A DNA stretch of 63,343 nucleotides, filler included, from Reclinomonas americana ATCC 50394 (GCA_048213135.1; 13 parts of 13 records of this genome joined end to end with filler, not necessarily neighbours in it); one strand, 5' to 3'. Numbered from the whole stretch's first letter, positions 3,085-62,479 are shown. Made by a program: numbers and translations. Notes: generated by a model not told the origin, from the sequence alone.

Positions 3085-4717
3085 ATGAGCACTGGAACCA
3101 GCGGAACTCTCCTCTCAGCAGCCGGCTTTAGTCCGCGCACGCGATCTCTCCTCGATGCCATTCACACGCTGACCAGCACCACCACCAACACGAGCACAAC
3201 GCGACCAGCCTCACGCCACCACAACAACAACAGTGCTGTGCTCAGACCGCAGCCGGTGACGGCAGTGACGGAGGTGGTGGCGGCCGCGTCGGCAAGCAGG
3301 ACGCGCCCGCGCTCGGCGTCGATGCTCGGCACGAGGCAGACGTTGTCGGTGTTTCAGCGTCCGGCGTCGACGTTGCGGCAGCAGGCGGCGGCTGTGGCGG
3401 CGGAAGCTGTCCGTCCGGCCACGCGACAAGCCGGCGAGTCGACGACGATTGGTACGAGCAGTGGTGTATTGGTGGGCGGACGCACGACACCGCCCCCGCC
3501 CAAGCGCAACACGTCGACGAACACGCCGCTGATTCGCAACGCGTCGGACTCGGAGTCCTCCAACAATGGTGTGCACACGACGATTTGCATGCGGACGCCG
3601 TCGCCTCCGCCCGCGGTGTCGGCGAGGTGTGCAGCCGGTTCGGCACTGGCCACGGCGCGTATGCTGGCCAATCGGAGAACGAATGCGTCGGGTGGAGCGG
3701 TCGGACGGCCACTGGTGTTGTCCAAGACGCAGCGCGATCAGCTGCGTGATGAGGACCACGCTCAGTTGGTCAAGGTCATCCACCCGGTGCCGGCGCCGGC
3801 CACCTCATCGACATCGCTCTTGTCGGTGCCGGCGCAGATTGCCGGCATGATGAAGCGCATCGACAGCATGCCACCACCTGCTGCTGGACAGCAACAGCAA
3901 CAACAGCAGTACGCGAGCGGCTTGGACAAGCTGCCGTCGCAGTCGTCCATGGTAATGAACTCGACCATGGCGACGGCGACGTCGCAGGCACCCAAGCCCA
4001 TTCGCGATGCTGTGCACATTTTGCGAGGGTGTGTGGCACCGCCCGGTTCTGGAGCCACGGAGGCGTTTGATCGCCTCATGTTCTCGGTCGAGGACTTTTT
4101 GTCGCGCATCCACCGACGAGCGCGCTCCTCGCCCGCCATTGTGTATCTCTCTACCTACTACATTGTTGCGTCGTCACCTCCGGCAGCTGCTGTATGCGAC
4201 TCAAACTGGTGTACTGACTTCTTCTCCTTCCCTCAATGCGCAGTGGAAGCTCGCTGAACGTAACACGGCAGTGCGCGTCACCATGTACAACATCAAGCGA
4301 CTGGCTTTTGTCGGAGTGGTGCTGGCCCACAAGTTCTTGGAGGACCGACCGGCCCGCAACCGCTCCTGGGCCAAGCTCGGCGTGTTTGCGTCGTTGGCGG
4401 AGCTGAACCGCACCGAGCGCGAGGTTTTGCGCCTGCTCGAGTGGCAGCTCATGGTCACCGACACGGTGCTGTGCGGGTGGATCCACGCCCACATTGCCGA
4501 TTTTGAGGACAGCAGCCTGCGGTACGAGCTCAAGTGGCCGTCGTCATCGTCGTCGTCGTCCACCGGCAACGGCTCGTCGCCATCGCCAGGCATGGTCTCG
4601 TCGCCGGTCAAGCCCACCACCAGCAACGAGTCATCATCATCGTGCTTGAACTCGGCTCTTGCCGCAGCCGTCGCTGCTGCAACCGCGAACGCCTCTGCTG
4701 CCGCCGAGGTCATATAA
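3085..4717 (+). CDS. PHO80/cyclin-P(U)-family cyclin with a long low-complexity N-terminus; exons 3085-4164 and 4244-4717
   Basis: The cyclin box SVEDFLSRIHRRARSSPAIVYLSTYYI|WKLAERN...NIKRLAFVGVVLAHKFLED...NRSWAKLG...LAELNRTEREVLRLLEWQLMV is restored by removing a 79-nt intron (GTTGCG...ctgac...CAG). Confidence 0.85.
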
Positions 4718-5623
4718 TTGTGTGTGTGTTTGACGGAGAAAAATATGTGTGTTGTAGGGTGTGTATGTGTAACTCTTCTTAGCTGTTATCCTTGTGTCGT
4801 AGTAATGTAATGCAGCCGTGGCTGTGGTTGTTTAACTGATGGGGGAGGGGGTTGAATCCACTGCTGTGTTGTGGAGAGAAAGTCGGAGCCGTGACGTCGA
4901 CAACTCCCAGACTTGACCACTCTCGCGCTGATGGTGTTGTGCTCTCACGCGCAAGTGATCACACTCGCTGACAGGAAGAAAGAGATGACACCGGCAGTGT
5001 CCTCTTGATCTCGTCAACCACGCTGTCATGAAATGCAGATCGCTGTTTCTCTCGTCGACGACTTGTTCGAAGCACCACCACCGAAAGCGAACACACAGAT
5101 ATACCGCTGTTGTCAAGGCTGGTGTTTGCGCTGTGGCTGGACGTGCTCACCCAGGAAGGTGTAGCTGGTTTGTTGGTGCATGAATTGTTGGTCGCCGCCG
5201 CACATTATTTCAATATCGAAACTGAAAGATACCGCGAATTCAAAAGATTATGTTTTTTGGTGTCGTCATTTTTCACGCTGTGATTCCACACAGTGATGGA
5301 CACTGACCCTGAGACCACATGCTGGCCCACCGCAGCGGACATCTCAGAATTAAAAAATTGCTGGCACCGCATGCGGCTGCATCTCCCTTTGAATCAAAAA
5401 AATAGAACCTAATTGTGCGAATACACTGGATCTTTTTCTCTTTTCCCTCCTTTCTCTCTTTCTTTTCCCCTCCGCCTTCCACCTGCTGTGCTCCTTCACC
5501 TCCCTCCCGCGACCGAAGAGATCAATCCGCGCGTGTTCAGTTGCCCCATCAACAATGTCGTACAAAGACCGATTAGGTGACTTTTTCATTCTGTGTACAA
5601 ACAATTATCATTATCTCTCTCTC

Positions 5624-6168
5624 CTACGAGGCACGCGGTGGCATCACACGCATGGCGGCATCGTCGACGGCCACATCCACATCCATGGCCTCGGCCATCA
5701 CCGGTAATCTCAGCACGTGGCGGCAAAACAGAAACGCCATGTGCCGCGGTGTGTGGTTCTCCACCGCCTCCTCGGCGTCCATATCGTCCGCCACCACGCG
5801 CACGGCTGGTGGGGGTGGAGGTGGGGGTTGATCAGCGCCAGTTGAATCTTGTTGTTGTTGTTGAGGTGAGAGGGTGTTGATCACGGCCACACGCGCGGCC
5901 AACGCGGCACCGAACGCCACCCATTGGCGTGCTTGTGCCGGCAGCCCGCCCGCTCGTTGCATGCGACGCATGTCGTCAGCAGTCCAGCTGCGCAATCACC
6001 CGAGGATGTGAGCGCGCGAGGCAGAAGAGAGAGAGAGAGAGAGTGATGTGGGACGAACCGAAGGGCATTGGCCAGGGGATTCGCGGGAATTGACGTCCGC
6101 GCAGCATGCTGCATGGTGTGACGCGCGGTGCACGACGCGGTGTGGAGGCTCTCAAAGGGATCATTCAT
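5624..6168 (-). CDS. Hypothetical protein, two exons
   Basis: MNDPFESLH...NALR joins across a GTTCGT...GCGCAG intron to WTADDMRRMQRAGG...PPRAS*. No recognisable domain. Confidence 0.4.
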
Positions 6169-6932
6169 GGTTGGTTGGTGGTACGGGGGTGGGTGGTGTC
6201 TTCTCTCGCAGATTGAGATGAAAAAAGTGCTGGTGCATCATCGGCTGGAATCCAGCTGATTCTTTGTCATTCCAACGCATCATTTCAGACGAACGTATCC
6301 GCATCCAACACAAGGTGTCGCACGTGCGCTGAGTGGTGCTTCCGGCTGGCGGAGTGCACGCGCGTGGTATGGCGAGGGTGCGTGCCTGCGTGCGTGCGTG
6401 TGGGCGGCGCTTCATCAAGATCACGGTCGATTTGGACATTTTTTGTTGTCCAAACGTTCGATATGCTAAGTGCACAAATCTCCTGGGATACTGCACCGGC
6501 GCCGTCCTCTTCTCGCCGTCGAGCTTCCCGTCACTGTTGTCAGCATGGCGGTGTGCGTGGAATCCCCAGTCCAGTTTCTCGTAGTCCTGGTTTACATGCC
6601 GACTTTAGTATGAATGTGTCAGAGCATCAAACGATGCGAAAAAAATGCCCTCGCTTTGTTCTTGTGGGGGTTCAACGAAATTCGCATCCACTCCACCAGA
6701 AGCACCTTGGCCTCCAGCCTCCAGCAGTACACGCAGATCAGCGATACAGAAGCTCACGGCAGCTGTCTCGAACACAGGTCGTTTGTCGGCACATGCCCAC
6801 ACGCTCTGTCCGAAGTCCACTTTCGCGCCGCAGGGTCACTGTCTCGCACCTGCTGCTGATGCGGAACCCCCACTGCCCCACCCCCGTACAAACTTGACCC
6901 TCTCTGAATCTTCCCTCCACCGCTTGCACCCC

Positions 6933-7032
6933 NNNNNNNNNNNNNNNNNNNNNNNNNNNNNNNNNNNNNNNNNNNNTTAATTAATTAANNNNNNNNNNNN
7001 NNNNNNNNNNNNNNNNNNNNNNNNNNNNNNNN
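6933..7032. other. Artificial contig linker N44-TTAATTAATTAA-N44 (also at 13372, 32887, 34203, 35640, 36861, 38369, 49324, 56331, 59100, 60322, 61757)
   Basis: The identical 100-nt spacer, with stops in all six frames, occurs 12 times. Confidence 0.98.
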
Positions 7033-13471: not shown

Positions 13472-16400
13472 AATGCCGGCCGGCACCGACCCACGGAGCC
13501 ACTGCACGTCACGCATCCACTCGCCCCACGTCGACGACTCGAGGAGGCTCATGTTTGCCTGCGCTGCATTGCCGCTCAGCTGGCCAATCGCGTGCAGAAT
13601 GCGCAACGCCTGCAGAGCAGCCTGGTCGGCCGAGCGACCGGACACGTCCACCACGCGAATCAACTTGGCCACCTGAACACTCGGCTTTCAACAACAGCAA
13701 TAACAACAAGAACACCAACCAAATACAGAAAGGTGCGAACCTCGATGGCACTGCAGTCGGTGGTGAATGACTGCACAATGTCGGCTGCCTCGCTGCTTGC
13801 TTCGCTGGTGCGCGCCCAGTCAACCTGTCGACTGGCAATGGACGCCAGACACTTGTCCAGCAGCGAAAGTACGCGCGCTTGACGAGACGACAGCGCGTGT
13901 GCGCGATGCGCATTGCTGCTGTCGGCGACTCCACTGGCCGGGAGAATTGTCGACACCTGATATCGATGCATGTCAGCCGTGCATTGTCAAGCACAGTCAA
14001 CGCAAATAACAAAAAAGCGACAAAAACCATGATGGCTGGGATGCCGTTGCCGGAGAAGAGAGCTGAAAATCCCCACGGGAAAGTGACCAGCTTGTCCACC
14101 AGGGCCGTAGCCAGTTCTGCCACGTCGTCTCCCATGGCAGCCGGATCAAAGCACAGGCGGAGAGAGGACACTGCATTTTGAGGAGCGGCAACATTCAGCG
14201 GAATGGCAATGAGGTGGTGTGCAGAAGAACTCAGGATGCAACTGGCGGATCGCACTGAGGCCGTCACGAAGGTCATGCTGCCGGGTCCCTCCCATGCTGA
14301 CACGGTGAGTGGCAACGTGCTCGTGGGGAGCAATTGCAGGCCTGCGCACGCCACTGCATGAGGACAATGCAAATGTCTAGTGGTGGCGCGCGCATGTAAA
14401 CCATTGGATGCGGCCACATCGGCCAGCGCACAGAGGACGCCGAGTGCCACCTGAGCGTAGGCGGCTTGCTGCGACCGCGGCACCGTGTCTATCGAACGCA
14501 GCAATAACAGTGGAAGCTGGTGCTCGACGACAATGGCAGCCACCATGTCCGGTGCTGCGACGGAGAGAGCACACATTTTTTTCAACACCAGCGGCGGCAG
14601 AGGAACGGAGTACGTTGTCGCACACACGCAACAAGCTTCTCGAACGAGTCGAGAGACGAGGCGCAGGAATTGCATGCACACGTCGGAGCGCGGATACGAA
14701 CAGCCGTGGACGACGCCCGACAGCAGTGCTTCCAGCAGCTGGGTACGGTGGTTAGCATGCACAGGAAAAAACAGAAGACAAAGACACCGATGCTTGCTTG
14801 ATTTTTCACACCTCGGCACGACTCTCGCGAGCAGCATCGACGATTGCTCCCACCACCATGGCACAGCGTGAGGCCAGTACATCCCTGCGCCATGCAAAAA
14901 GCAGTGAGTCTCAGCACCAACCACATCACTGCAACACGGTAAGAACCATTCGTGGGGCGCGCGTTGTGGCGACTGCGGGTCAAACACATATTGCACGCAG
15001 GTAACCACCAACTTGGAGAGCGATTGCGCCACTTCGGTCTTGAGCAGCGCCACGCAGGCGCCTTGCAGCGATGCAGTGGAGAGCAGCTGCATTGCAAGAG
15101 GCACACACCTCATCAGCGAATCGGTCAACAGAACGACGCCCCTTCACACACACCTGCTGCAGCACAGTCGCCGCCGATAACCAGGAGTCGTACGTCGGTT
15201 CGGCAAGCAGCCGGCCAGTCATGTCCAGCAACGGCGCCAACACGTCGGCAACTCCCTCTGAGAGCGGCATCTGCATCACAATCGCGGTGAGTGTGCGAGA
15301 GCGCATTGGAGGAGCGCGAGCCCCGCCCCGACACACCGCTTGGATCTTTATGGTGGCCAACTTGCCGACGGTGGCCACGTCGACTTCGGAGCTCATGGAC
15401 GAGTCGCGCAGTGCGCTGAATAGCTCGGCGTAGGTGATGCTCTCGGCCCACAGCAAACTGTGACACAAGCACACTTAATCGAAAAAATGGGGATCAATGA
15501 GCAAGGCAGCATCATCACGCACCCATCGGCACCGCTCTCGCGCAATCGCTCGAATGTGACCAGAGCACAGCACCACGTCTGCTTCACACACGAGGCGTCC
15601 GAGTGCTGCCGTTTCCACACAGTGCCGAGTCATGCCAACCAGTCCATGATTGGATCAGCACACAACACCATTCCCACGCAACTTGCTGCGCGACAAAGTG
15701 GTCCAGCAACTGACGGAGGCCAGCGGCAAACACACGCGGGGCCTCCGCCGCCGTCAGACGCAGTACAGAAGGCCTACGTAGCACTTCTTCTACGAGACGC
15801 ATCACCTCCTGCACCCGCCAGCAAGTGAGCAACAAGGCCACGGCGAGCTGATCGACGTCGCAAGGTACACTCACCAGCGCGCCTCGTGGAGCCGCCGCTG
15901 TCGACTGCACGAACAACTGATCAATATGCACTGGCAGAGACCACCACGGTAGGTGCGTGAGCCACTGCGCGGCAGATCGCCGCTTGCTCAAGCTGCTCAC
16001 ACTCGCGGCAGCGACTGCAGACAGCGCGCAGACGTAGTCTCGCAGCAACGCAGCAGCGTCGGCCACCACGGCATCCCACGAGATCTCCACGGCCATCGAC
16101 CCCGTGGAATCCACCTGCAACAAGTGATCCACATCCTCGAGCAACTCCCACAGCTGTGTTGATACAAGAATCTTGGTAAGAAGCTGCGCAACGTGCAGCA
16201 GCAAAGACACTCGAATTCTAGTATTCACCGCGCAAAACACATTGGCTTGCCCGGCTTCCGCCGCTCGGGACTCCAGAGTGGCGAGCTTGCCACGCAACTC
16301 TTCGCTTCGCAACTGACGCGCAAGGCAGTCGGCGATTCTGCGGAACAGCAGGCTGGTCGAAACCAGATCTTGTTCGTCGTCATCGGAGTGAGATTGCGTG

Positions 16401-19400
16401 GCACACACGAGGCAGGCAGGCAAGCAAGCAAGCAGTGCGTACCACCCGACATTTCGCGCGAGGTAGCCTGCAGCAGTGCACACCAACGCACTTGGCTGGC
16501 GGTCTGCTGGATGGCCGGCAAGTAGCCGGCGACCAGCTTCTCCGAGCACCTGATGCATGGTCAAACAACGAATCAGCGTGTGCCAATGATGCTCGACGTG
16601 CAACCCCCACGCAACAAGGCCACCAGCTCGAGCAGATTCGACATGGCGCGCGTATGTGAAGCATACTGCCACACAGCGTTGGTGGACGGCGCGCTGTCGC
16701 TGTCGCTGTTGCTGGCAGACGCAGCCGCGGCACTGCCACCGCTGCCGGTGATGACGGACGCTGTCTGCACGTACTCGTGGCACAGGCGGGAGCACACATT
16801 CAACAAATCGTCGGCCAGCAACTCGTGCCCATTCGCAATGTCAACGGCCAGTGTCCGCGCATGAGAGTACACCGACGATGGTCGACTGTCCTCCATCACC
16901 GTGCGCATGAAATGTGTCTGCACCACGCGTGCGTGAGAGAGGGAGGGAGGGAATGAAAAAGCTCTTTCAGTGTCCGCACCTCATGTAGACAGGTAACAAT
17001 GAGGCCGGCAAACACCGGAGGTGGCATATTGTCGAGCGCGGACATGGAGGGTGTGCGAGGCGTCGGCGGCACGTCAAGCGAGCAGCCAAGTGCATCCGCG
17101 CCGGTATTCACAAGCACAGGCTGCGGTCGATGCGTGTTGTGCGACGAAGACGACGATGATGATGACGCCGGCTCTGCGGCCACCGAGACAGCTGGTGGTG
17201 CTGCTGCAGTGGTCGGCGATTGCGCCATAACCTCAATGGCCTGCCCCAGTAGGGAGGCAACGGTGGCCGCGGCGGTGCCCGAGATGGGTGTGTCGGGATT
17301 GGCAGACTCAGCCACGGTGGCGTCCAGGGCGCGCTCCAGCAGGGTTTGCACCGTGTTCTTGGTGGTCGCCGTCACTGGTGTCGTTGGCGAAAGGAGTGGC
17401 TGCTCGGTGGCGGTGTTTGTCCAGGAACGCGCTGACTGAGCGGATGCTTGCTGTCGCTCGGCACGCAGCGACGCAGGCACCGGAAGCGATGCATCACGCA
17501 GCGGCACGGTGGCCACAAGGGCAGAAATTACGCTGGCAGCCGCGGTGCTGACCGCGACATTGCCGCGAACCACCTGCTTGGCGAGATAGACCACCATTCG
17601 CTCTGAGAGAGAGAGAGGAGGGCGAGTAAGCGCAAGAAGGAGAGAGTCGTGACCACCAAACACAAAATACCTGCTGCCAGGAACAGGCTGTCGCCCGCTG
17701 CCGAGGCGAGCAGAGCACCGCAGCACGGCGTGCTGCCCTTGCACAACTCGGCCAGTACCGACAGGCACAGGCATTCCTGACGCACAGAGAGTGTTTTCGC
17801 GGCCGTGTCAGGTTTGGTCGGCGACAGTAGTCGCCCACTGTCGTCGCCGGCCAGTACGTGCTGGACCAGAGTGCCCACCATCTGCTCGGTGGCGAAGCGA
17901 GCCTTGAAGTAGTCGTGTGAGCGGAGAAGCGATGCCAGAAACTCCATGACTGCATCCAGCGCCTCTTCGTGGTCGCGGCGGTCGGCAGCAGTCGGCGGCG
18001 GCGGCGCACTCAACACTGTCTGCACGCACGCCGACACGGCCGACACCACGTGTTCCGCACTGGGCAGCAGGTACTCGACACGCATGCCAGAGACCAGCGA
18101 CGCCAGCAGACGGAAACAGTGATGCAACGCGGCGGCCGCTGGCGCCGAGTCTGTGGGGAAAGGTGTGAACGAAGCGGGCAGGGGAGGAATCGCAAGGACA
18201 GAGAACAACGCAACTGCGCTCCGCGGAGCACGCCACGCACCAGCGCAGGAGCGACAACAAGCTCTCTGCGCTTGTCGACCGCACAATGTCCTCCGTCACA
18301 TCAACCAGCACGGCGGCACGGGTCAAGATGCGCAGCGTCAGGTACGTTGCCGGACTCTGCACACAATTCATGAGACGAGCAGCGGCAACGACTCGTACCC
18401 ATCCGTACACAGAAACACACAAACCGAGCGAAGCGCCGGTGAGCCGAATCGCGCCAGCAGCAGCTGCCAGAGGCGGTGGAGCGTTGCGCCCGAGTGCTGC
18501 GCCAGCTGCTCCGGTCGCACGTCATGAAGCACATCCAAGAGGGATTCGAGGAACGTCTCTGTCGTCGAATGTGAATATGCACCCACCAAACATACAACAA
18601 CAAACCAAAAAAACACACACACGTGCCTTGAAGCAGCGCATCGGCGCCGTCGGCACCGGCGACAATTATCGACACCTCGTCATGGAGGATGGCGTCGAGC
18701 GTGGACTCGACGATTTGGAAAAAGTCGGGCACTTCGGCCAGCAAGTGTTGCGTGCGAGTGTCCAGGTCGAGTCCAGAGCGCGTGCGCAGTCGCTGTGCAC
18801 ACGCAGACACATTCAATGAGCATCAACAGGCAAAGCTGCGCGACGGGGGCAAACTCACCACTGATGCAGAGTTGATGGAGGCGGCAAACGGTTGCAAGCC
18901 ACTCAGAAGCGCATGCAGCAGGCGCAAGGTGGCCTCGCTGCTGCGAACTACCGCCGCGAAGTCGGCAGGCGGAAGCTGCAAATCGCGCTCCACCACGACA
19001 CGAGCTGCGACCGCTGTGAGTGCACTCAGCAGAGGGGCACCCAGTTCGACCAGGAACCGCCGGTTTGCCTCGTCCGCCACACAGCTCTTCTCCAGCTGGC
19101 GGAGAAGCGGGACCTGTGCACGCCGAGCTGACGACAGTACGTACAGCAGTGCTTCTCGTGCTCGCAGCTGCATCTCTGTGCTCTCGACACCGTCGCCGAG
19201 TGCGTCCAACAGCCACAGACTGAGCCTCCCGTTGCGTGCCGATCCGCCAACCAGAGCGCTCTCGCCGCCAGCGGCACCAGTGCTCGAGGCAGGAGTCTCG
19301 TCTGCCAGCACATGCTCCGCACACTCGGCCACAAGCACGGCGTGCTCACCCTGTGATGCGGTGAGAGTTCTGTCACTGTGTGTGCAACCGCGATCACCCA

Positions 19401-32835: not shown

Positions 32836-32986
32836 GTTACGTGTGGGGGGAGCAAGGGGTTGCTGCTGTGTGTGTGTGGTGGGGGTNNNNNNNNNNNNNN
32901 NNNNNNNNNNNNNNNNNNNNNNNNNNNNNNTTAATTAATTAANNNNNNNNNNNNNNNNNNNNNNNNNNNNNNNNNNNNNNNNNNNN

Positions 32987-36960: not shown

Positions 36961-37025
<65 letters not shown>

Positions 37026-40768: not shown

Positions 40769-43700
40769 TCACGGCTTTGGCGCCCGACGGCACCACGACA
40801 GCGGATTGAGCCACGCTAGACAGCGGCGTAGTGCGCTTCCACCTCCACCACCGCCACCACCTGCTCCGCCCTGCACGGCGAACAGTGCAGTCTGAGCCGT
40901 CGTGAGGTCCAGGCTGGCCAGCGACGAGATGAGATCCTCGCGTGTGACAAACTCGCGTCGCACGGGCACGTTTTGCACCAGGCGCACCCCTCGATGGCCG
41001 GTGATCTGCACGCCAAGTGAGCACAGGCGAACAATCTTACGAGGAAAACACTTGGATTGCGAGACGCACGTCTTCCACCCACTGCACGACATCGCTCAGC
41101 GGCTGCTCGACCGCAAACTGCTTTTGGATCGGCGTTCCGTTCCACAGTCGGACCTTGACGACAGTGTGCGTGGGCGGCTCGGGTGCGGCGGCCGGGCGAC
41201 GGCCTCGTGCAGCTGCAGATGCGGCTGCGGCTGGGCGCACCTCCGGTACCACTGATGGTTCGGCGGGCGGGCGGCGCCCACGTGCCGCTGGACGTGCCTC
41301 GGGTTCCACTGGCGGCGACGCCTCTGGCTTAGGAGACGGAGATGCCGCTGGCTTGGCAGCAGCTGGACGCGTCTCTCGCTCTACAGCAGGCTGTGGACGC
41401 TGCAAGGGCGGAAGTGAGGCGTGCAGTGTGGTGGCAGGGCAAAGCTGCAGGCTGGCCAGCGACTTGGACATGTGCGCGGTGGTGAATTTCTTCTTCGGCA
41501 CCGTCTGCGCCAGCTCAAAGCCGGTGGTGGTGGTGGTCTGTGCGGAAAAAATCGAGTGAGAGACAAATAGAGGTGGCGGGAGGGGAGGTATATTACCTCC
41601 TCCACCCAGTTGGCGACCTCTGCCAAGCGGGCAGTGGCTGGGAACTCGCGGCGAATGACGGAAGAGTTCCACAACCGCACGCTGATCATACACTGCGCAA
41701 CGAAACCAAGGGCGGGTGTCAGACCAACGCAAAGGATACGTGAACCCCCTTCTCTTCTGTCTCAGAAATGCCTACTTCCTCACACTCACATATTCCATGC
41801 CCTTCGCAACAACTTCCACCGACAAGAGCAGCTTCTCTCTCCTGCTGTCTCAGACGACCTCGCCCTGACCTTTTCGTTCTGGGTTACCGCTTTCTACGCT
41901 CTCACACTCCTTGTCATATCTCAACAACCACTTCATGTGTGCAGGTGCGCAGCGAACAAAGAGTAACCTATTCCTGTCTCCTAAGAGTCTCCCACCAAGA
42001 ATTTTTCGATCTGATCCTCGAGTTTCTCACCTCTCGCTCTTTCTCAACAACAACCACCAAGGGACAGCTTTCCACTCCTGCTGTCTCAGACGACCCTCCC
42101 TCTCGTTCTGGGCTCTCATTCTCTGTCTGTCTCAACTGCCACCCAACAAGAGAAAATTTCCCTCTCCTTGAATCTCAGAAGTGACTCTTGCAGTCTCTGT
42201 CTTCCCCATTAATTTTGTCACTCTCCCCCACTCCTCTCTTCTCCTCTTTCCCTTCCCTTTTCTCCCTCTCTCCTCTTCTCTCTCCCTTCGCCTTTTCTTT
42301 CCTTTCCTTCCCTTTCCCTCTTCCCTTTCCACACACCGTAGCTGCTGCCGCCGTCGACGGAATCTCGGACGCAGGCGCAGCAGCGCTGGCGGCTGCTCGC
42401 GCCCTCGGATGCCTCTCCTATTCACCCCACGGACGGTGTGAGCCGACAAAGAGGAAAGGGAATGAGTGAGCATGCTGCTCACCGATGATGGATACTGTCG
42501 AGCAGGCTGTGCAGGATGAGCAATTATGTGAGACACGGAAAACAGAGTAGAATGTCTGACACTACGATACGCACCGCAGCAGGTGGCGGCTGCACACGCA
42601 CAGAAACAAGGCATGAGATTCACCGAGCACGCAACAGAAGAGAGAGAGAAAGAGAACTCACCATTGAACTCGAGGAACCACCCTGCATCGAAGCAATCAG
42701 CATCATACGCCACGCCAATGAAGGAGACAGGTCTCGAGCACTCACCACTCCTCTTGGCGACGCGTCTCTCGATCTCGGCGACGCGTCTCTCGATCTTGGT
42801 GACGAATCCCACGATCTCGGCGAAATGTCGCCCGCTCTCCTCGGCGACGACTCGGCCGACCTGGTAGGCTGCATCGCAGGAAGCAAAAAGTCAGTCGCCA
42901 CTCACACCTCTGAGAATCACTTTTTCGCACCGATGGTGGCACCGTCACCGTCTGCGCAGAGAGGGAATGAGTGCCACAATAATCAACACAAGCTGCAGCA
43001 AACACATTTCCCCACCGGCAACAAGCCAGCCCCTCGCGCCTGCAGCATCCACAAGAGCAAAATGAGTACAGTATGCGCATACACACAAAATTCAGGGGTG
43101 CAACAGTCTCACCAATGGCGATTCCTCGGGCACAACAATCGGCGCACGCTGCGAAGCCTCCATGGCCACCTGCCGCTCCTCCGCCTCCAGGTAGGGTGCC
43201 AGCAGCGGCGCGGCGAGTGCCACCTTGCGACGCACCGTGGCAATCGCTCGCCGCAGGCTGCGTTAAAGCGTGAGAACCTATGTGAAGGAACGCACGCAGA
43301 GACAAGTGAGCGCAACTTGTCGCGCTCAAGACTCCTCGCCGACACGTTCTTCATCATGCGCAGCTGCGCGTCGCTGTAGGCAAGTGGAAGTGAGCAGAGG
43401 GGAGGAAAGAGGAAGAGAGGAGGAGGGAGAGGGACTCGACTTGGCGACACGAAGGGCGCGATCGAAGACGGCCGGGTCAATGTCGCACGGGTAGCGGACC
43501 TCGACTTCTTGCCCTTCGGAGTTGAAGCAGTGAACGGAGGGGAAGCCGCGGGGGGTGCCTGGGAGGGGGAGGGAGGAAGGGTGAGGAGGAGGAGGGAGGA
43601 GGAGAGGGTGAGGGAATAAGGGGAGGAGGGAGGCAATAGCGAAGATGGAGAGGGGTGAGACAGAGAGAGAAGGGAGCAAGGGAGGGAGGAGGGTAAGAAA

Positions 43701-44207
43701 GGAAGAAGACAGGACGATACAGTGCGGCCAACATGAACGCCGGAAGAGAAGACACGAGAGAGCGAGCGAGCGAGAGAGAGAGAGAGAAAAGGAAAGAAGA
43801 CAGGCCCAGACAAGACACAGAATGCAGGGAGCCCGTGAATGCATCAAGAGAAAACGAGGAGGGAGAGAGAGAGCGAGAGAGAGAAGAAGATAGGCGCTTG
43901 ACAGTGCAACAAGACCGTGCGTAGGGACAAGTACGACAACTAAGTGCCACCTAAACCAATCAAGGAGACGACCAAACAGAGAGAGACGCAACACTTCTTG
44001 CGGAGTTGCGGGCACTCGTCAGCGGGCTTGATAATGACACCAATGGCGTGCACCGCAGGCTGTGAACATGAGAGAGAGAGAGAGTGTGTGTCAGAGAGAG
44101 AGAAGGAAGAGAGAGAGAGACTGACAATATGTCTCTCGTTCACACACTGCACCACTCGCCCTCACCTTCTCTCTCTCTCTCACACACACACACTCTTTCT
44201 TCTTTCT

Positions 44208-44270
<63 letters not shown>

Positions 44271-44806: not shown

Positions 44807-47135
44807 TTAGGCGCGATTGAGGATTGCCCGCAGCCTCTGAAGCAGCTGCTTTTCCTTGGTCTCGAAATCCGGCCCAGAGCGGTACTCAGCGTCCGAGTCC
44901 TCCAGCCAGCGCTGCACGTCCGACACGGTTCCGCTGATGGACAAAGCCAGCTGCTCCAACTTGCGTTCGGCGTTCTTCTTGCACGCCTTCTCTTCCTCCA
45001 AATCACGCTCGACGTCGCGGTAAGTTCTGGCTCTCTGCCGCACGTTGTCTCTCCGGCGCGACGTCCGGCCACCAATGTCGCCGGAGAAGCGACCAGCAGT
45101 AGAGTCAGCCACGTAGGTCGCATCATCATCCTCTTCGTCGACTTCTTCCCCTTGGTACGTAGCCAGGACCGACCGAGTCTCTCGAGTCAGCTCCGCTTTC
45201 TTGGCCTCAACCTCCTCCAGCGAATGGTACTCCACGTCCTCCAGCCAGCGCAACACATCAGACGCAGCATCGTTTACCGATGAGGCCAGCTGCTCGAGCT
45301 TGACCTTGGCGTTCTGATCCTTGCGCACGTGCGGCCTGGAGGCGGAAGGCGCAGGAATACTGCGTGAAGTCTGCGAATTATGTACCAACGACATCGCAGA
45401 GGTCTCCGACCGAGGCCGGTGCCTTGCAAAGCTGGCCGACTCTTTCGTGATGAAAATCTTGTTTTCCTTGCCCGTCGACTTGTCCTTGGCCGACACCTCC
45501 AGAATGCCGTCGGCCGACAGGTCGAAGGTGACCGCAATCTCCGGACAGCCGCGAGGCGCCGGTGGGATGCCCGACAGCTCAATTATGCCAAGCAGGCGGT
45601 TGTCCTTGGTCTTGGCACGCTCGCCCTCAAACACCTGAATCAGCACGCTGCTCTGGTTGTCGGCAAGGGTGCTAAAGGTCTCCGACTTCTTGCACGGAAT
45701 GGCCGAGTTGCGGTTGATGAGATTCATCATCACACCGCCGGCCGTCTCAATGCCAAGCGACAGCGGCGCCACGTCGATCAGCAACAGGCCCTTGGTGGCC
45801 TCCGACCCGGTACCAGTGAATATGGCAGCCAGCACGGCAGCGCCGTAGGCGACGGCCTCGTCGGGATTGATACTCTTGCACAACTCCTTGCCGTTGAAGT
45901 AGTTGCGCAGGAGCTCCTGCACCTTCGGGATGCGGCTGGACCCGCCGACAAGCACCACCTCGTGCACCTCGCCCTTGCTCAGCTTCGAATCGCGCAGCAC
46001 TTTCTCCACGGGGTCAATGCATTTGCGGAAGAGGTCGATGTTGAGCTCCTCGAAACGGGCGCGGGTGATGGACGAGTTGAGGTCGACGCCCTCGCCTAGC
46101 GTATCAATGAACATCGCTGTGACAAGCTGCGACGAGAGTTCGCGCTTGGAGCGTTCGCATGCCGTGCGCAGGCGGCGAATGGCCCGTGGGTTGCTGCTAA
46201 TGTCCTGCTTGTGCTTGCGCTTGACCTCCTCCACAAAGTGGTTCACCATGCGGTTGTCAAAGTCCTCGCCGCCCAAGTGAGTGTCACCGGCCGCGGCCTT
46301 GACCTCGAACACGCCCTCGTCCAGCGTCAGCAGCGACACATCCAAAGTGCCACCGCCCAGGTCGACGATGAGAACATTGTGCTCACCCGGAACCCACGGA
46401 TGCAACGGGAGGCCATACGCAATGGCGGCGGCCGTCGGCGCGTTCATAACACGAAGCACTTCGAGGCCGGCGATCAGGCAGGCATCCCGTATGGCCACGC
46501 GCTGATCCTCGTTGAAGTAGGCCGGCACTGTGACCACGGCCTTGGTGACCTTCTTGCCGAGGTAGGTTTCGGCCGTCTCCTTCAGCTTGACGAGTACGAT
46601 GGCCGTGATCTCCTCGGCCGAGAACTGCTTGGTCTCGTTCTGGTACATGACCTCGACCATGGGCTTGTCATCCGGGCCCTGCACGACACAGAACGGCCAC
46701 AGCACCTTGTCGGCCTGCACCGTCGGGTCGCTGAACTTGCGGCCAATCAGGCGCATCGCATCAAACACTGAAGGAGGAGAACCGACAAATTAAGCACAAC
46801 GAGACAAGTGATCGCGCGTGCTGACAATGTCAATGACGACGCACCAGTGTTGCGCGGGTTCATGGCAGCAATGCTCTTTGCATCCTCGCCAACCATGAGC
46901 TCTGTCTCCGTAAAGCTGACGTACGACGGCGCGGTGCGGTTGCCGTGCTCATTGGGAATGATTGTGACGCTGTTGTTCTCCTGCGGGTGAGAAAGAGAGT
47001 GAGCAAGTGAGTAAAGAGACAGAGTGTGTGTGCATGAATTGAGGGACGTGAACACACCCACACTGCCACACATGAGTAGGAAGTTCCGAGATCAATGCCG
47101 ATGGCTCCCTCGTACTCAGCCATGACTGTTGCCAT
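44807..47135 (-). CDS. HSP70: Divergent cytosolic-type Hsp70; three exons (47135-~47058, 46981-~46845, ~46767-44807)
   Basis: Motifs [82 protein letters not shown] and [18 protein letters not shown]. Both introns join in frame. Confidence 0.95.
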
Positions 47136-47795: not shown

Positions 47796-50700
47796 ATGAG
47801 TCTCTTCGACGACTCACCCACCGCCGACTCCCTCTCCACCTCCTCCTGGGACTCGCCACCAGAGCTCACCAAACAACACCAGAAGCAACAACAACAACAA
47901 CAACAACGCACCAAGCGAGCCACCGGAAACGTGTTCCAGCGACTGACTGCGCGCCCTCCACCGCCCATCTATGAATCCGAAGCGCTCAACCGACCAACAA
48001 CACCACCCAATGCGCTGGAGAGACGAGAAATGGAGTTGCGTGCCGGCCTCATGTATATATTTGGTATTGATTGCCAGCTCCTGATATCTCTCATCACAGG
48101 CTGGCCCGAGAGAGGATGCGGGAGGATGTGAGTCTCTGTCTTCCGCTCACAACGTGGAGGGTTTGTGAGCTTGTGAGTGCTGATCGTTGTTGCGCAGGAG
48201 GCCATTCGGCTGGCGGCCGATGTATTTGCCAGGCAGACTGGCTCGATGCGACGGCCGTCTGGCTTGCTGCCCAAGTCGTGGTCGGTGAGTGTGTCGACAT
48301 GCAGTCGACTTCCCTGAGTCTTCTCTGTCCTCCTTTCACCTCACCGCACTGTTCGACCTCATCCCTTTCACACAATTCCTTCCCTTCTCTTCCCGCTTCA
48401 CCCATACCTCTTCGCCCTTCCATTCCCCTTCTCGTCGTTTCCTTCACCATTCTCCTTCCCTTTCCATCATTAGCATTCCTCATGTCGCCCTCCTCCTTTT
48501 TCTCGTTCTTGTCTTCGCCCTTCTCCCTGCGCCCTTCAATCTGCATTCCTCCTTTCCCCCTGCATTCTTCCCCTCGTCGCCCTTCTCCTCCTCCTGTCGC
48601 TTTTCTCTTTCTCCCTTGCCGGGCCCCATCTCGCATGTCCTCTTTTCCTTCCGCACTCATTCTCCCTCCTTCCTGCATGACCCTTCACCCTTCTCTCTTC
48701 ACTCTTCCCTGACCCTGTCATTTTTCTTCTCATCGCCCCTGTCACCTTTCCCGTTCACCCTTCCCCCTGCATTCCTCCCCTCTTCACTCTTCCCTCGTCG
48801 CCATGTTCTTCCTCCTTTTACTTTTCACTTTCTCCCTTCCCTCTTTCCCAACTCCTCTTTTCTTTTTTTCGCTTCCTACCTCTCTGTGCTCTTTTTTTCT
48901 TTTCTCCCTTTCCTTTCTCACCCACCCTTCCCCTTCTTCCTTTTCCCTTCTCCTTTCCCCCCCTCGCAGACCTCCCTCAACGTCCCCCGCGAAACCACCA
49001 ACGACTCCACCTTTCACCGCTCGCTGGTGGAGGACGACGACTCGGTACTCAACGACGACCTCATCGCCCGCCGCCGTCGCCTGCAACTGGAACGCGTACA
49101 CTCACCCTCCCACGACGGCGGGGACGGATACTCGGAAATCGCCGGCAACTCACTGTACGAGGAGGCGTTGCAGCGAGTGCGGGAGATGCACGAGGCGCAA
49201 AAGGACAGCAAGCGCACGCACCAAGAGCTCCTGTATCGCTTCACGAGGACGCTGCGCGAGCGAGAGGGTGCTCGTTGCGTTCCATGTCTTTCCCCCACGC
49301 TCTCCATCGCCTTTCTCTCACTTNNNNNNNNNNNNNNNNNNNNNNNNNNNNNNNNNNNNNNNNNNNNTTAATTAATTAANNNNNNNNNNNNNNNNNNNNN
49401 NNNNNNNNNNNNNNNNNNNNNNNTGTGTCGTCGCGGCCGCTGTCGCCGGAAACGGCCGCACGCTCGCAGCACACACCACCACGCTTGCGGCCGTACGAGC
49501 CACCGTCGTCCATGGATATTGGCCCAGCGCACGGGTACACCACGCGAGTCGACGACGCCAAACTCAAGTTTGTGCGTTCTGCTATGGTGGAAAAAGGTTA
49601 GCTGCTGCGCGCCAGGGGGAAGGCGCTGGCTAGCACTCACTCTTTGTGTGTCGCAGAAATGACGGCACGCCAACAGCGCCTGGCCATGCTCCCTCTTGTA
49701 CACCGCTTGCGGCGAACCACTGGCGGTGAGACTCCGAGTTGCCGAGCACTTTCGCTCCCGCGCCCACCCTCACTCACCATTCGCATTCCAGGAAAGCCAC
49801 GAGTGCGCGACTGTCGTTGCGACGGATGCACACACGGCCTGCCGTGCTTGAATCCACGCACTCCCGCCGTGTTTGCCGTCGTGGATGACCCGCGTGGTTG
49901 CGTCATCTCCCGCCCCGCCCGCCCACCCGCACCTTTCTCATCTCGTTGTTACGCCCAGACATTGCCAAGATGCGTCCGGACTCGCGCCTGCTGGAGGCCC
50001 GCGGCAAGCTGGACGGCGACCCGTCGCAGTCACTTGACAGCGCCGTGCTGCAGTGGCTGTGCTCGGAGGAGGCCAACGGACTGGGTGCGGCCGACCAGAC
50101 CGCCGACCGGCAAGTGCGCGTACGAGACTATCGCCGACTGTTTCTGGAGACCAAGGCCGACGGGAGGTGGAAGCAGACGTCGACGTGGCGCACCATGCTC
50201 GCCACCAACAACACGCTGCGCCTGCGCAAGCTGCCATCGTTGCGGCGTCGCTTTGCAGCGGCGGCGGCTGCTTTCGGAGAGGGCGATGTAGCAGAAGAAG
50301 GAGGAGGAGGGGGCGAGCAAGTGTCAACATCGCCGACCGCCACTGCGGCCGCTGGTACGACAATGGCGACGTCGATGGCAGGTGGCACGGAGACCATGGT
50401 CGGTGGCGGTGGCGGGGACACGGTCACGGAATTCACGGCCGAGCCGTCGGTGTTGGCACGCGAGATGCTCAGTCTACTGGAGCAGATCGACAGCGAGGAA
50501 GAGGAGGAGGATGACGAGGAGGAGGCTGCAGTGGCGAAGAAAGCAGCGATGGAATTGCCAACATCAGCCGCACCACCACCACCACCACCTGAACCTTCCG
50601 CCTCGTCTCCGAACATGGCGAAAAAGGCGGGTGTCTCGTGGAAGCCACCCGCTGACCGTCTGCACGCCAGCGAGATCATCGACGACTGGTTCACGGGGCA

Positions 50701-52178: not shown

Positions 52179-55100
52179 TCACCGTGGATGCTTCGGCAAA
52201 TCTGTATTGCAGAGACTATGAGACAACAATCCAGCCCAGAGATGACATTTCTCGTGTCCTCATCCATCTTCTTCCTCATCCTGTCTTCCTCCCTCCTTCC
52301 TTGTCTTTCCTCAGTCTATTCCTCTCCTCCTCTTCATTCTCTTCGTAAACCACCAATTCCTTCTTCTCTTCATTCTCCTTCTTCTCCTGCTCTCCCCTAT
52401 TCCACACCTGCCTTGTTCTTCTCCTCTTCTCTTCCTTCGCCCCTACTTCCTGTTCTTATTCTTCCACACCTTCTCACCCCATATCTTTCCCGTTTTCTAG
52501 TTGGCATTCTTCTCCTCTCTATCTCTCAGTTTTCTACTCTTCATTCTCCTTCTTCTCCTCCTCTCCCCTATTCCACACCTGTCTTTTTCTTCTCCTCTTC
52601 TCTGCCTTCGCCCCTTCTTTTGTTTTTTCTTCCACACTTTCTCACACCATATCTTTCCCGTGTTTCTTCTCTTCACCCCCCTTCTCCTTTCTTCCTCCCT
52701 TCTCCTGTGTCCCCCCAACCCCTCAACACTCACCCAACATGGTGCGCACAAGATCCGTGTTGACGCTGACGGCCAGCGGCAAATCCGTCGGGTCGTACAC
52801 ATCGAGCACGCGGCACAAATCGATGAGTAGCTTGCGGCACGAGGTCACCGGCAAGGCGGCAATACGCTTACTGCGCAACTGCGCCAGTGCCACCAGTGCA
52901 TCCTCCACCTCGGCGGCTCGCGCTGTCTGCCGTGCCAGTGCGTCCACCCACAAGTGGCGCCGCTTGTTCAGTCGCCGCCGGAACCCGTCGCTGTAGCCGC
53001 GACCAGCGGTACGCCGGCTGCGTCCCCAATGCTCCGGCACAAAGTCGATCTTGGCGTACTGCGCATCCATAAAGTCGTCCACATTCGGCTCGTCGTCCTT
53101 GCCGTGCTGACTGGCGGTGGCGGCGACTTCGTGGTGGTGCTTTTGAATAATGTCGGCGGCGCGATCGACCAGGTACCGGCGCAGGAGACGATGAGCGCGC
53201 TTCACGGCCTGCACGCTGCGATCCACGTCGGCAAACGACTGCCTCTCCTTTTTCGTGTAGTGCTTGAAGATGCGCTCGGCCTCGGCCAGCGTGCGCTCCA
53301 CCTCGGCGTCCTTGACGCGAAGCAGCTAGGAAAAGGGGAAAGGGGGGAGAGTGAGCGGGTGAGGGGAGGGAAAGGGAAGAGGAGGGAGGGGAGACGCAAC
53401 TCGTTCGCAGCGTTCGCGCTCCATCTCAAAGAGGCGTGTCCAGTGTTCGGGCGACGGTTGGCTCTCCTGCGGAGATTGCAGAAGGGGTGAGCGAACAGGA
53501 AAGACGGGGAAGGCGAAGGGAAGAAGGGAAATATGAGGCCAAAGGGGAAAGGAATAGGGGAGGAAAACTGCAAGGTATCTGGGAGTGAGGGAACAGGGGC
53601 AAGTGAAAGGGATGAAAGCAAAACGGGGGGAGTGACAAGGGGAATATGAGACGAATGGATCGGGAAGAACGCTTCTTGACAGGTTGCCACTGAGCAGCAT
53701 TCTTGCTCTTTCGTGCTGTCACTGGATCCAAAGTTGTGGTTTTTCTCTCAATCTCATTCAAGCACAGACACAGACACACGCACACTCACTCACTCACTCA
53801 CTCACTCACTCACTCACTCACTCACTCACTCACTCACTCATTCACTCACTCACTCACTCACTCACTCACTCACTCACTCATTCACTCACTCACTCACTCA
53901 CTCGCTCACCGACTGGCTGACTCACTCACTCACTCACTCACTCACACCCTCCCTCCCTTCACTCACTCACTCACTCACTCTCACTCATTCACTCATTCAC
54001 TCACTCACTCACTCACTCATTCACTCACTCACTCACTCACTCGCTCACCGACTGGCTGACTCACTGCTGACTCACTGACTGACCCCGGCGCCCCTCCCCT
54101 TCGCAGACTCACGCACGCACATATTCTTAAACTTCAATCGAGAAGAAAAAGAGGAAGCAGAAAGGAATGACCAGGGAGAGGAGCTACCTTCTCACATGCA
54201 GCCCTTCCTTTCTCTCGCTGTCCCTTCCCTTTCTCCTTTCCCTTTTTCTCCCTCTTTCTCTCCTCCTCCCTTCCCCTTTTCCCCTGCTCCCTCTCCCTTC
54301 ACGCACCTGCTGTGGCGACTGTCGCTGATCAGTGTGTGGAGCAGCACTAGGTGGGGCTCGTCCACGCGCAAATGCCTGCATTCGTCAACATCATGAGCAG
54401 CAGGATGAAACACCCTTTGACACTTCTGCTTCTCTCACCTCTTGCCTGGTCTTCCAGATCATGTCCTCCAGATCCTCCATGTGCTCCACCAGCTGATCGT
54501 ACTCGGTGCGTGGGTGCGTCCGCAAGCGTCGTCGTCGCCGAGACTGCGTGCAGGTGAGTTGCAAGAATTGTGATGTGATGAATCAAGAGAAACGCACTTC
54601 ATCCAGCGCGGCACGCTGCTCTTCGTACTCCTCGTCGGTGCGCGGCGCACGCATCTCCAAGATCGGAAACTGGTGTCGTGGCCAGTATCGCCCATCGTAC
54701 TGCGCGTGCGAGAGAGAGGAAGCGAGAGAGAAGATGGGTGAGAAAGAAAAAGAGAGAGAAACATAGGCAAGAACATTTTTCTTCTTCCTTCTTCTCCTCC
54801 TTCTTATTCTCCGTCCTCCTCTTCTTGTTCTTGTTCTTCTTCTTCACCATCTTCTTCTTCTTTTCTTCATCTTGTTCTTCTTCTTGTCCTCTTCTTCTTC
54901 TTGTTCCTCTTGCTCTTCTTCTTCTTGTTGTTCTTCTTCCTCTCCTCCTCCTTCTTCTCCTTTCTTCTTCTTTCTTCTCCTCCTTCTGTTCCGTATTCTC
55001 CTCCTTCCTCTTCTTGTTCTTTGTTCTTCTTCTTCTTTTTTCACCATCTTCTTCTTTCTTCGTCTCATTCTTGTTCTTATTCTTGTTCTTCTTCTTCCTC

Positions 55101-59747: not shown

Positions 59748-59806
59748 TTACTAATTCAAGCAGCAACGCAGCTGCATGATGATCACCATCTTGAGTGAGC
59801 ACCAGA
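59748..59806. repeat. 59-bp dispersed repeat, copy 2
   Basis: ttactaattcaagcagcaacgcagctgcatgatgatcaccatcttgagtgagcaccaga; matches 37973-38031. Confidence 0.8.
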
Positions 59807-60421: not shown

Positions 60422-61756
60422 CAATTTATGATAGATTGGAGTATTCTGTCGCTCACTTCCGTATTTCCAGCAATTGAACCACGCAGTTCGTGTTAGCACT
60501 CCTTCGGGCTCTCTGTCGACTCTGGTGGGCAACGGGACTTCCGGCACTGCCAATGGCACTGGAGCAAGTGCAAGGTTTAACCGCCCGTACGGCCTTGTTA
60601 TGGACTCGTCCAACAAAGTTGTATACGTCGGCGATTGGCAGAACAATGCTGTCAGAAAGGTGTGTGCGCAATCCGTTTGATTGTGTTGTGCACAATTTCA
60701 CATCCTTGCTTCCCACAACTTTAGGTCACATTTGGTGGCGAGGTCACCACTTACTGTGGCACTATTGGATCGTCGAGTACAGTTGATGGGGCTTGTGCAA
60801 CAACAGCACGGTTTGGTGGACCGAATGGTCTGGCATTGGACACGACAGGCAATCGGCTGTACGTTGGTGTGTATGTGTGTGTGTGTGTGTGTGTGCGTGA
60901 GAGAGAGAGGCGTTTGTGACACTAGATGTGCGCTTACTCGTCTGGGTGTGAGCAGCCGATCGAGTTCGGCATAATATTCGTGTTATCGACATGCTGGCAA
61001 TGACGGTTTCAACTCTGGCCGGCTCGCTCACCGCAGCGGCATGGTCGACAGATGCCACAGGCACTGCGGCTCGATTCTATACGCCAATTGGCATCCAGCT
61101 TGATCGAGCGCGTGGCGTACTTTACGTTGCTGATGTTGCGTCTGGTTGTTATGCAGTGCGCGTGAAGTACTTTCTCGCATCATTTATTGGAGTGTCTTTT
61201 AAAGTATTCCAACTCCACCATTCGCCAAATCGTCATCGGCACCGGTGTCGTTACAACCATCGCCGGCGCTGTGGGAGCCACGGGAGCAATCGACGGGAGC
61301 CCAGTGACAAGTGCTCGATTAGATGGCCCGGTTCGTTGTCTGGTGCTTGTGACGATTAGTTTGATGCGTCTCACTCATCGTGTCAGTCCAGGTGTTTATG
61401 GCGTACGATACCGCATCATCCACTCTGTATATTGCAGGTACGAGATCACGCAAGAGATGTAATCATTTTTTGGTTGGTACTCATCATATCTATCGATATC
61501 ACCAGAGTGGACCAACTCCGCCATTCGCCGACTCACCGTCGGCTCCTCTACTGTCTCCGCCACTCCGGCCACGTCTGGCGTCGCCTCAAGCACCGCCCTG
61601 ACCGCGTCGCTGACATCACTTGCCGCCAGCTGGACGTACTACTTCCGTGCCCTCTCCACCTCCACCGTGCCCAGCACTCTCACCGGCTCCACCATGTCCT
61701 TCTCCACCTCCAATTCCAAGCCGACTGACGTGGTCTGCCCTGCCACGTATGTCGCG
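60422..61756 (+). CDS. Internal fragment of an NHL/FN3-like module; inverted near-duplicate of 34303-35639
   Basis: The exon NHAVRVSTPSGSLSTLVGNG...QNNAVRK has the same translation in both copies. Exons and introns are collinear with the reverse complement of 34303-35639, with scattered substitutions. Confidence 0.85.
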
Positions 61757-61856
61757 NNNNNNNNNNNNNNNNNNNNNNNNNNNNNNNNNNNNNNNNNNNN
61801 TTAATTAATTAANNNNNNNNNNNNNNNNNNNNNNNNNNNNNNNNNNNNNNNNNNNN

Positions 61857-62335
61857 CTGGTGCCCTACATTGACGGCGTCAACTGTGTGCGCACGCTGGC
61901 GCACCTGTCGCACGTCGACCTCGTGCTCGTGCGCTCATGCCTCGAGCACCTGCTCTTCTACGACCTGATCATCATGGTGGATCTGTTCCAATTCAGCAAC
62001 ATGTACGTGGCGTGTCCGGAGGGCTTGCGGCATCTCATCAGCAGCGACGCCATGCGCCGACAATGCTTCAAGTACGTCGACACGCACCGTGACACGCTGC
62101 GCGACGCCGAGTCCGACGCCGGCACCGAGCGTACCTGCATTCGTGCGTACACCAGCATGAAGCCGGGTCGACGGGTGGGCCACGTCCTCGATCAGCTCAA
62201 CGTGCACACGGTGGGCATTGACGAGCGCAAGTTGGTGGCGTTTGGCGTGATTCAGAATATTATTCGGAGGGTGCATGAGTTTCCCGTGTTGGTGGATGTC
62301 GCTGATTGCCCGCCGGAGTTGCTCGACATTGCGCA
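61857..62335 (+). CDS. NPRL2: NPRL2 (GATOR1 subunit), internal exon
   Basis: LVPYIDGVNCVRTLAHLSHVDLVLVRSCLEHLLFY...VDLFQFSNMY...IDERKLVAFGVIQNIIRRVHEFPV matches the conserved NPR2/NPRL2 region. The exon ends at a GTTGCG donor (62336). Confidence 0.9.
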
Positions 62336-62479
62336 GTTGCGAGAGGGGGAAGGGGAAAGGGGGAAGGGGGTAGTGAGGGAAAGGGTGAGGGGGAGGGGGA
62401 AAAGGAAAGCGGGGAGGTCTGTGCGCCATAGCTTCTCACTAGAGTGTATTTTGGAGAGCGCTTCGATTTGCATTTCGAG

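Follow-up and report, generated by a model that had tools for sequence, protein, structure and literature searches.

GTTGCGT as a frequent second 5' splice site beside canonical donors in nuclear DNA of Reclinomonas americana, and its possible reading by U1 in a shifted register

The window analyzed here, that is, the whole stretch under study, comprises 63,343 bases of eukaryotic nuclear DNA from Reclinomonas americana ATCC 50394, with 56% G+C, and all counts given below refer to it. Beside introns with ordinary donors such as GTGCGT and GTGAGT, it contains many introns that start with the heptamer GTTGCGT. This heptamer is present in excess, shows a strong strand bias, is positioned at exon ends and is followed by the same 3' signals as those found in canonical introns. 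Judged from the sequence, GTTGCGT is most likely a real and common 5' splice site that is used by the same spliceosome and recognized by U1 small nuclear RNA (snRNA) through pairing in a shifted register, a combined reading to which we give slightly less than an even chance. The initial annotation of this DNA had described GTTGCG(T) as a major second class of donor that is unable to pair with U1 and U6 in the normal register. Both parts of this description were borne out: the donor is real and frequent beside GTGCGT and GTGAGT, and it accounts for 9-18% of the introns predicted by our own gene models of these 63 kb, depending on the intron set. This share is a rough one because errors are contained among the miscellaneous donors (37 of 77 short introns) with which the class is compared.

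The hexamer GTTGCG occurs 76 times in the window (26 on the plus strand and 50 on the minus strand). GTTGCGT occurs 32 times, compared with 11.1 ± 3.4 copies (maximum 22) in 100 dinucleotide-preserving shuffles, none of which reached 32. A single coding strand was assigned to 58.4 kb of the window on the basis of Pfam hits and codon scores, and on these strands 30 copies are sense and only two antisense, versus 5.2-8.6 sense and 2.7-3.6 antisense copies expected from Markov models of orders 0-3. GTTGCGT is thus enriched over background, which the initial annotation had named as a way of telling a donor signal from local base composition, and its signal is tied to the transcribed strand. Among 1965 heptamers with at least 15 copies, this strand bias is exceeded only by microsatellite-type words. 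The bias is absent when GTTGCG is followed by A, C or G (24 sense and 18 antisense copies), and GTTGAGT is likewise unbiased (5:2). Since the bias is confined to T at +7, the functional unit appears to be the heptamer rather than the hexamer. Each site named in the initial annotation does carry GTTGCG(T) or, at 32836 (+) and near 7194 (-), its variant GTTACG, the latter beginning at 7195.

Evidence for the position at exon ends was obtained with a gene finder that combined 3-periodic Markov exons and explicit introns of 40-1500 nt with a donor model that initially accepted any GT; the donor hexamer table, acceptor matrix and intron composition were re-estimated in each round. During the first run, GTTGCG rose from 4 of 75 to 15 of 114 predicted donors, beside 11 GTGCGT and 11 GTGAGT, and GTGTGT stayed at 5 despite its 169 sense sites. 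The second run was trained on whole stop-to-stop open reading frames (ORFs) alone, which kept every proposed splice site out of the training, and its 107 donors included 12 GTGAGT, 10 GTTGCG, 7 GTGAGA and 6 GTGCGT. When the antisense strands of these regions were used as a decoy, none of the 21 GTTGCG sites was called, no hexamer was called more than six times, and the median 'intron' length was 183-270 nt versus 71 nt in sense. Several GTTGCGT sites were misplaced by the gene finder before it had learned the motif. Some simpler approaches were discarded: plain ORF statistics told little, since all six frames of this GC-rich sequence contain long open stretches, a coding-drop score was dominated by G-rich low complexity, an ORF-end test found 27% of all positions 'donor-like' with no enrichment even for GTGAGT, ORF-joining pairs amounted to 8.5 per 1000 GT sites compared with 2.8-7.6 for other dinucleotides, and the gene finder, when run without strand masks, predicted too much on both strands.

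The best-supported individual case is a 69-nt intron with GTTGCGT and CAG on the minus strand (24771..24839), which lies within an LRR, keeps the frame and was called in both gene-finder runs. The last residue of the upstream exon corresponds to position 40 of the LRR_8 profile, the split codon gives P, and residue 2 of the downstream exon corresponds to profile position 19, which equals 43-24, one 24-residue period less. The 24-residue LRR register is therefore unbroken, and the placement of this site within an LRR by the initial annotation proved exact to the residue, the LRR_8 profile register being continuous over the junction. A second line of support comes from one intron that is present in two inverted, ~98% identical copies of an NHL-repeat gene, namely a 71-nt intron in copy A (34862..34932, minus strand) and a 70-nt intron in copy B (61135..61204, plus strand), both starting with GTTGCGT and ending with AAG. 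The exon ends read ...GVLYVAD and YSNSTIRQIV..., and the joined exons form D-x-x-N-x-x-[VI]-R with a spacing equal to that of an uninterrupted repeat of the same gene (...VVYVGDWQNNAVRK). From GTTGCGT to AAG the copies are mismatched at 11 of 71 columns, compared with 4 of 200 and 1 of 100 in the flanks, and the donor heptamer is conserved between them while the interior of the intron has diverged. Each NHL copy (34303-35639 on the minus strand and 60422-61756 on the plus strand) is a partial gene reaching a contig end; the two may be recent paralogs or uncollapsed haplotypes put in one scaffold. Their differences are concentrated in two short introns. The AAG acceptor (34862-34865 on the minus strand, 61201-61204 on the plus strand) is unusual, nearly all other supported introns ending with CAG or TAG.

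Canonical introns fixed by homology provided a comparator. The Hsp70-family gene (44810-47114, minus strand), detected with Pfam and by tblastn with five Hsp70 homologs, contains two 77-nt introns: intron 1 (46981..47057) runs from ...VAVW/GTGTGT to CGCAG/ENN, and intron 2 (46768..46844), with the canonical donor, from ...NT(G)/GTGCGT to TTCAG/(TG)FDAM. The 'ordinary' GTGCGT-type donors described in the initial annotation are thus real, as these homology-fixed introns with CAG acceptors demonstrate. A wider comparison was made with a short set of 77 introns (73 from the gene finder and four by hand), of which 26 start with GTG[AC]G, 14 with GTTGCG and 37 with some other donor. Canonical introns of this set are 54-90 nt and variant introns 59-104 nt in length. 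A branch-like YT[CGA]AY motif at -40..-6 was found in 20 of 26 canonical and 11 of 14 variant introns, versus 638 of 3000 exon windows (binomial p=8e-6). Variant and canonical introns alternate within single genes, and the variant introns have no common sequence outside the heptamer; hence they are neither a repeat family nor copies of a mobile intron. As GT...AG introns that keep the frame, match canonical introns in length and carry a branch-like motif before the 3' splice site, GTTGCGT introns are probably ordinary U2-type introns. U12-type introns begin with RTATCCTT and have, near the 3' end, a branch site of the TCCTTAAC type. They resemble the present case in being a second class with a rigid donor motif beside a degenerate major class; however, GTTGCGT introns have a canonical-like branch motif and YAG. 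A U12 assignment was rejected: the donor is GTTGCGT, and RTATCCTT has two matches in the window, a number reached in 17 of 100 shuffles. One of the sequences of this kind, the U12-type donor consensus GTATCCTT at 41732-41739 (-), lies in sense orientation shortly before the exon that encodes the UBX domain; a CAG follows only ~46 nt after it, and such matches are at chance level in the window.

The two classes differ in the context of the donor. G at -1 precedes only 1 of 17 vetted variant donors and 18 of 26 canonical donors (Fisher p=3.7e-5), and among all 30 unvetted sense copies of GTTGCGT it occurs twice (p=0.004 versus 28% G). T at +7 in 15 of the 17 variant donors mirrors T at +6 in 17 of the 26 canonical ones. 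When the exon side of the variant donors was scored with the canonical matrix, the log-odds were -14.9 in the same register and -1.3 in the shifted register. In addition, the variant exists only in the GCGT flavour (no GTTGAG and 14 GTTGCG, compared with 16 GTGAG and 10 GTGCG among canonical donors; Fisher p=1e-4), and none of 14 sense GTTGAG sites was called as a donor. The near-absence of G at -1 before GTTGCGT and the restriction of the variant to the GCGT flavour are the new features of this system. Pairing was counted with the human U1 5' end as given in Tan et al. 2016 (PMC4856993), with which GUUGCGU forms two Watson-Crick pairs and one GU pair in the normal register and five Watson-Crick pairs and one GU pair when shifted by one. 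Poor normal and good shifted pairing, together with the lack of any preference for G at -1, is what distinguishes a shifted register.

In the reading that we favour, the same spliceosome would remove GTTGCGT introns and canonical introns with (G)/GTGCGT or (G)/GTGAGT. U1 pairing would be moved by one nucleotide, so that G+1 of the variant would fill the place of the canonical -1 G, U+2 would be the sole mismatch, and U+3 to U+7 (UGCGU) would pair like +2 to +6 of GUGCGU, with cleavage still taking place before the upstream GU. Seen in this way, GTTGCGT equals the canonical heptamer G/GTGCGT apart from its second base, a relation that predicts the lack of G at -1. A more specific proposal, which we hold only tentatively and consider rather doubtful, is that one U1 routinely reads both classes, G/GUGCGU normally and /GUUGCGU shifted by one. 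Because the variant occurs with GCGU only, the 5' end of U1 would, in such a two-register reading, be adapted to +4C, with G opposite +4, and such a G would give a shifted duplex of about seven Watson-Crick pairs.

Several observations weigh against the shifted-register reading. The exon-side log-odds of -1.3 in the shifted register are neutral rather than positive, and the commonest base at -1 among the 30 sense copies is T (13), not A (8), which would pair with U10. GUUGAGU shifted by one against human U1 would form six Watson-Crick pairs and one GU pair, which is better than GUUGCGU, and yet no GTTGAG donor was found, so that a standard U1 in the shifted register is not the whole story. Something specific to UGCGU is at work, for which a U1 with G opposite +4C and a second, dedicated U1 are candidate sources. 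No U1 or U6 gene was found in the window at Rfam gathering or E<=1 thresholds. On the side of the gene models, all are unsupervised predictions from 63 kb, and 37 of the 77 short introns have miscellaneous donors, many of which are probably misplaced. Four of the 30 sense copies (11700, 16298, 26139 and 58463) read through as plausible coding sequence, indicating that the heptamer alone is insufficient and that context matters. Moreover, the GTTGCGT donor at 4165 in a cyclin gene has an in-frame rival, a GTATGC donor 27 nt downstream (4192), which was the choice of the gene finder.

Among the alternatives, the one that fares best is that GUUGCGU has a reader of its own in the normal register, either a second snRNA of U1 type with a 5' end complementary to GUUGCGU or a protein factor, which would make the variant introns a separate recognition class; we regard it as possible, if rather unlikely. 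Such a reader would suit a nearly invariant heptamer (T at +7 in 15/17) and its confinement to GCGT (0/14 versus 16/10), which is not predicted by simple pairing with a standard U1, and U1 5' ends that co-evolved with donors are described for Entamoeba and Mastigamoeba balamuthi in a preprint (bioRxiv 10.1101/2022.06.08.495308). However, it does not require the depletion of G at -1, variant and canonical introns share the same length and 3' signals and alternate within genes, and no snRNA gene of any kind is present in the window.

Alternatively, the same U1 could keep the normal register and loop out one U, at +2 or +3, so that GU(U)GCGU is read as GUGCGU. A bulged register retains the pair between G at -1 and C9, and weaker sites usually depend on this pair more. 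At GTTGCGT, by contrast, G at -1 is depleted rather than kept (1/17 versus 18/26, and 2/30), with same-register exon-side log-odds of -14.9, which makes a bulge improbable even though T at +7 is conserved like the canonical +6 T (15/17 versus 17/26) and experiments in human have validated registers bulged at +2 or +3 (Roca et al. 2012, as reported by Tan et al. 2016, PMC4856993). The initial annotation had proposed either pairing outside the normal register or a variant form of U1, U6 or an associated factor, and had favoured a bulged U; the general proposal still fits, whereas the bulge does not agree with these -1 G counts. The shifted register is preferred to the bulged one because of this depletion and because of the GCGT-only flavour. 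Finally, it is very improbable that GTTGCGT is no splice signal at all and merely owes its excess to biased codons or composition, or to a dispersed repeat, the in-frame introns being chance GT...AG pairs: although the ORF-only background is very high (27% of positions 'donor-like', and ORF-joining pairs from every dinucleotide) and four copies are exonic, the 30:2 strand bias is limited to T at +7, the decoy run called none, the LRR register and the NHL spacing are exact at two junctions, paralog divergence is restricted to the GTTGCGT-AAG segment, the branch-like motif is enriched, and the introns share only the heptamer and so form no repeat family.

The shifted register proposed here has known precedents. 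In the account of Tan et al. 2016 (PMC4856993), all pairs between the 5' splice site and U1 move by one position in the shifted register of Roca & Krainer 2009. The human shifted-register sites described there agree with GTTGCGT in having G+1 in the place of the -1 G, a pairing block one base deeper and cleavage at the upstream GU; they differ in being a handful of idiosyncratic sites, whereas here a single fixed heptamer recurs at roughly every tenth intron. A further difference is that the heptamer of this window is built on a +4C consensus (GUGCGU) and limited to that flavour. According to Tan et al. 2016 (PMC4856993), validated non-canonical registers comprise 3119 of 201,541 (1.5%) human 5' splice sites. 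The bulge and asymmetric-loop registers (Roca et al. 2012; Tan et al. 2016, PMC4856993), as presented there, share with GTTGCGT the better pairing obtained when one nucleotide at +2 or +3 is left out, but they do not fit the -1 G statistics, and the 1.5% in human compares with 9-18% of predicted introns here.

Transformed donor signals in other lineages are described in the same preprint (bioRxiv 10.1101/2022.06.08.495308). In Entamoeba, GUUUGU(U) donors are accompanied by a complementary U1 (AACAAAC), in Mastigamoeba balamuthi GUGCGC donors are accompanied by a U1 with ACGUAC, which has G opposite +4C, and Thecamonas and Mamiellales show a +4C donor consensus with a standard U1. GTTGCGT is similar to the Entamoeba donors in its U at +3 and conserved U at +7, and the +4C consensus is shared with Mastigamoeba, Thecamonas and Mamiellales. 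Entamoeba and Mastigamoeba have one dominant consensus, whereas the present window has two classes with a one-base offset, often within one gene. Among the literature matches listed for GTTGCGT and GUUGCG, only primers and unrelated sequences appeared, and no printed description of such a donor.

What is known of how 5' splice sites are defined outside the textbook U1 register comes almost entirely from rare human sites (1.5% of 5' splice sites). If the shifted-register reading is true, this genome would provide a natural experiment in which U1 recognition (register) is separated from the choice of the cleavage site by U6 and U5, and a sharp prediction could be made for the 5' end of the organism's U1. 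If two registers are indeed read, this organism would be the first to define introns throughout its genome, and as mainstream practice, by way of a non-canonical U1 register, which is otherwise a 1-2% exception. The case extends a short list of lineages, namely Entamoeba, Mastigamoeba, Mamiellales and Thecamonas, in which donor signals have been transformed, and gene predictors with a single donor matrix would mis-annotate a genome with two donor classes.

With regard to the individual sites, short in-frame introns (57-104 nt) begin at 13 of the 30 sense copies, 4165 among them, and 11 of these introns end with YAG and two with AAG (the NHL paralogs). Besides the LRR and NHL introns, they include on the minus strand a 64-nt intron (18151..18214) ending with CAG, which joins a 102-codon frame to a frame of at least 200 codons and was called both at iteration 0 with an uninformative donor model and in the second run; a 65-nt intron (24376..24440) with the branch-like motif TTGAC and CAG, supported by frame and gene finder; two 61-nt introns called in both runs (23826..23886 and 26485..26545, the latter with the branch-like motif CTGAC); a 75-nt intron with TAG (53326..53400), supported by frame and both runs; and an intron of 104 nt, or 77 nt with an earlier CAG (15579..15682), called by the gene finder, which closes a 386-codon frame. 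A 90-nt intron (37569..37658, minus strand) directly after a signal-peptide-like first exon was read by hand from the frame and was missed by the gene finder because no gene was predicted there. On the plus strand, a 65-nt intron (48035..48099), found both by hand and by the gene finder, is followed by a 28-nt exon and then by a GTGAGT donor at 48128, and a 62-nt intron (49897..49958), supported by frame and gene finder, links two long frames.

The remaining short intron is a candidate of 79 nt (4165..4243, plus strand) in a PHO80-like cyclin gene. It is in frame, and a cyclin-Y alignment is slightly closer to the shorter loop, which lends weak support, so that the choice stays between the donors at 4165 and 4192. 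The initial annotation had placed this junction within a cyclin box, which held for the downstream exon only (Pfam Cyclin profile 88-149); a PDB search with the upstream exon gave no match.

Long candidate introns are needed at three of the 30 copies, all supported by the frame and both gene-finder runs: 816 nt at 26694..27509 (minus strand), 648 nt at 39844..40491 (plus strand), and 434 nt or 488 nt at 43559..43992 (minus strand). Three others (9402, 14632 and 33408) begin intron-like segments that are free of stops and divisible by three in length and may therefore be read through instead. One copy (42635) lies within a GTGAGT intron, and six belong to none of these classes (44 at the window edge, 49274 at a gap, and 16615, 25976, 56826 and 57827). 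At 16615-16537 (-) the sequence is intron-like: GTTGCGT runs into five G, a TTGAC motif follows, and CAG comes 66 nt downstream. The two flanking frames are not joined by any GT/YAG pair here, although they would be if a homopolymer in the draft were one base too long or too short. Two predicted introns start with GTTGCG lacking T at +7, one of 59 nt with GTTGCGC (43258..43316, minus strand, both runs) and one of 72 nt with GTTGCGG (24193..24264, minus strand, gene finder).

At all ten sites for which the initial annotation had reported reading-frame continuity, an open frame is kept across a GT...AG intron. Its domain assignments around four of them, namely PH (27509), EF-hand (39844), UAS (43992) and LRRcap (24440), found no Pfam match on the exon pieces at E<=10. 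The sites that it had listed as ends of coding-like sequence (44, 49274, 56826, 56970, 57827 and 62336) sit beside the window edge, a scaffold gap or low-complexity sequence. Purine-rich tracts follow the GTTGCG sites at 39844, 57827 and 62336, and an AGGGGGA-type purine repeat (62344-62401) stands directly after GTTGCGA at 62336. In addition, a minor donor type of another kind may be GTTCGT, whose +3 base is U in the normal register: probable introns start with it at ~34735-34683 (-), ~61331-61383 (+) and 6058 (-), it has 13 sense and 5 antisense copies, and the paralog pair has diverged exactly across its intron segment.

A Pfam scan of 559 raw ORFs of the window detected Cyclin, LRR_8, CTLH, PAN_4, UBX, Hsp70, NPR2 and a weak NHL, and nothing else. 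Located by Pfam are the PHO80-type cyclin gene (3959-4714, plus strand), LRR_8 (24794-25666, minus strand), CTLH (32306-32935, plus strand; E 2e-33) and NPR2 (61809-62492, plus strand). The best protein identity of the Hsp70 exon was at most 68% among 8000 scored matches and at most 70% among 1.84 billion representatives, and the gene is a diverged paralog or else stems from a lineage of which few sequences have been sampled. The CTLH exon had a single protein match with 35% identity. A word search of proteins gave no match for the NPRL2 exon, and a C-terminal NPRL2 exon beyond 62336 was searched for and not found.

The window contains 12 gaps, one of them at 6933-7032, each composed of 44 N, TTAATTAATTAA and 44 N. 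The TTAATTAATTAA filler is an artificial six-frame stop linker, and the window is therefore a chain of short draft contigs (1-6 kb in places). Parts of genes are lost at gaps, for example at 32887 and 49324. Long GA/CT low-complexity tracts (30600-30940, 44060-44265 and 54130-54870) gave dozens of sub-threshold Rfam matches to 'miRNA' (microRNA) families and the Hsp83 3' untranslated region, which are composition artefacts, and a perfect (TG)73 microsatellite occupies the end of the window (63198-63343).

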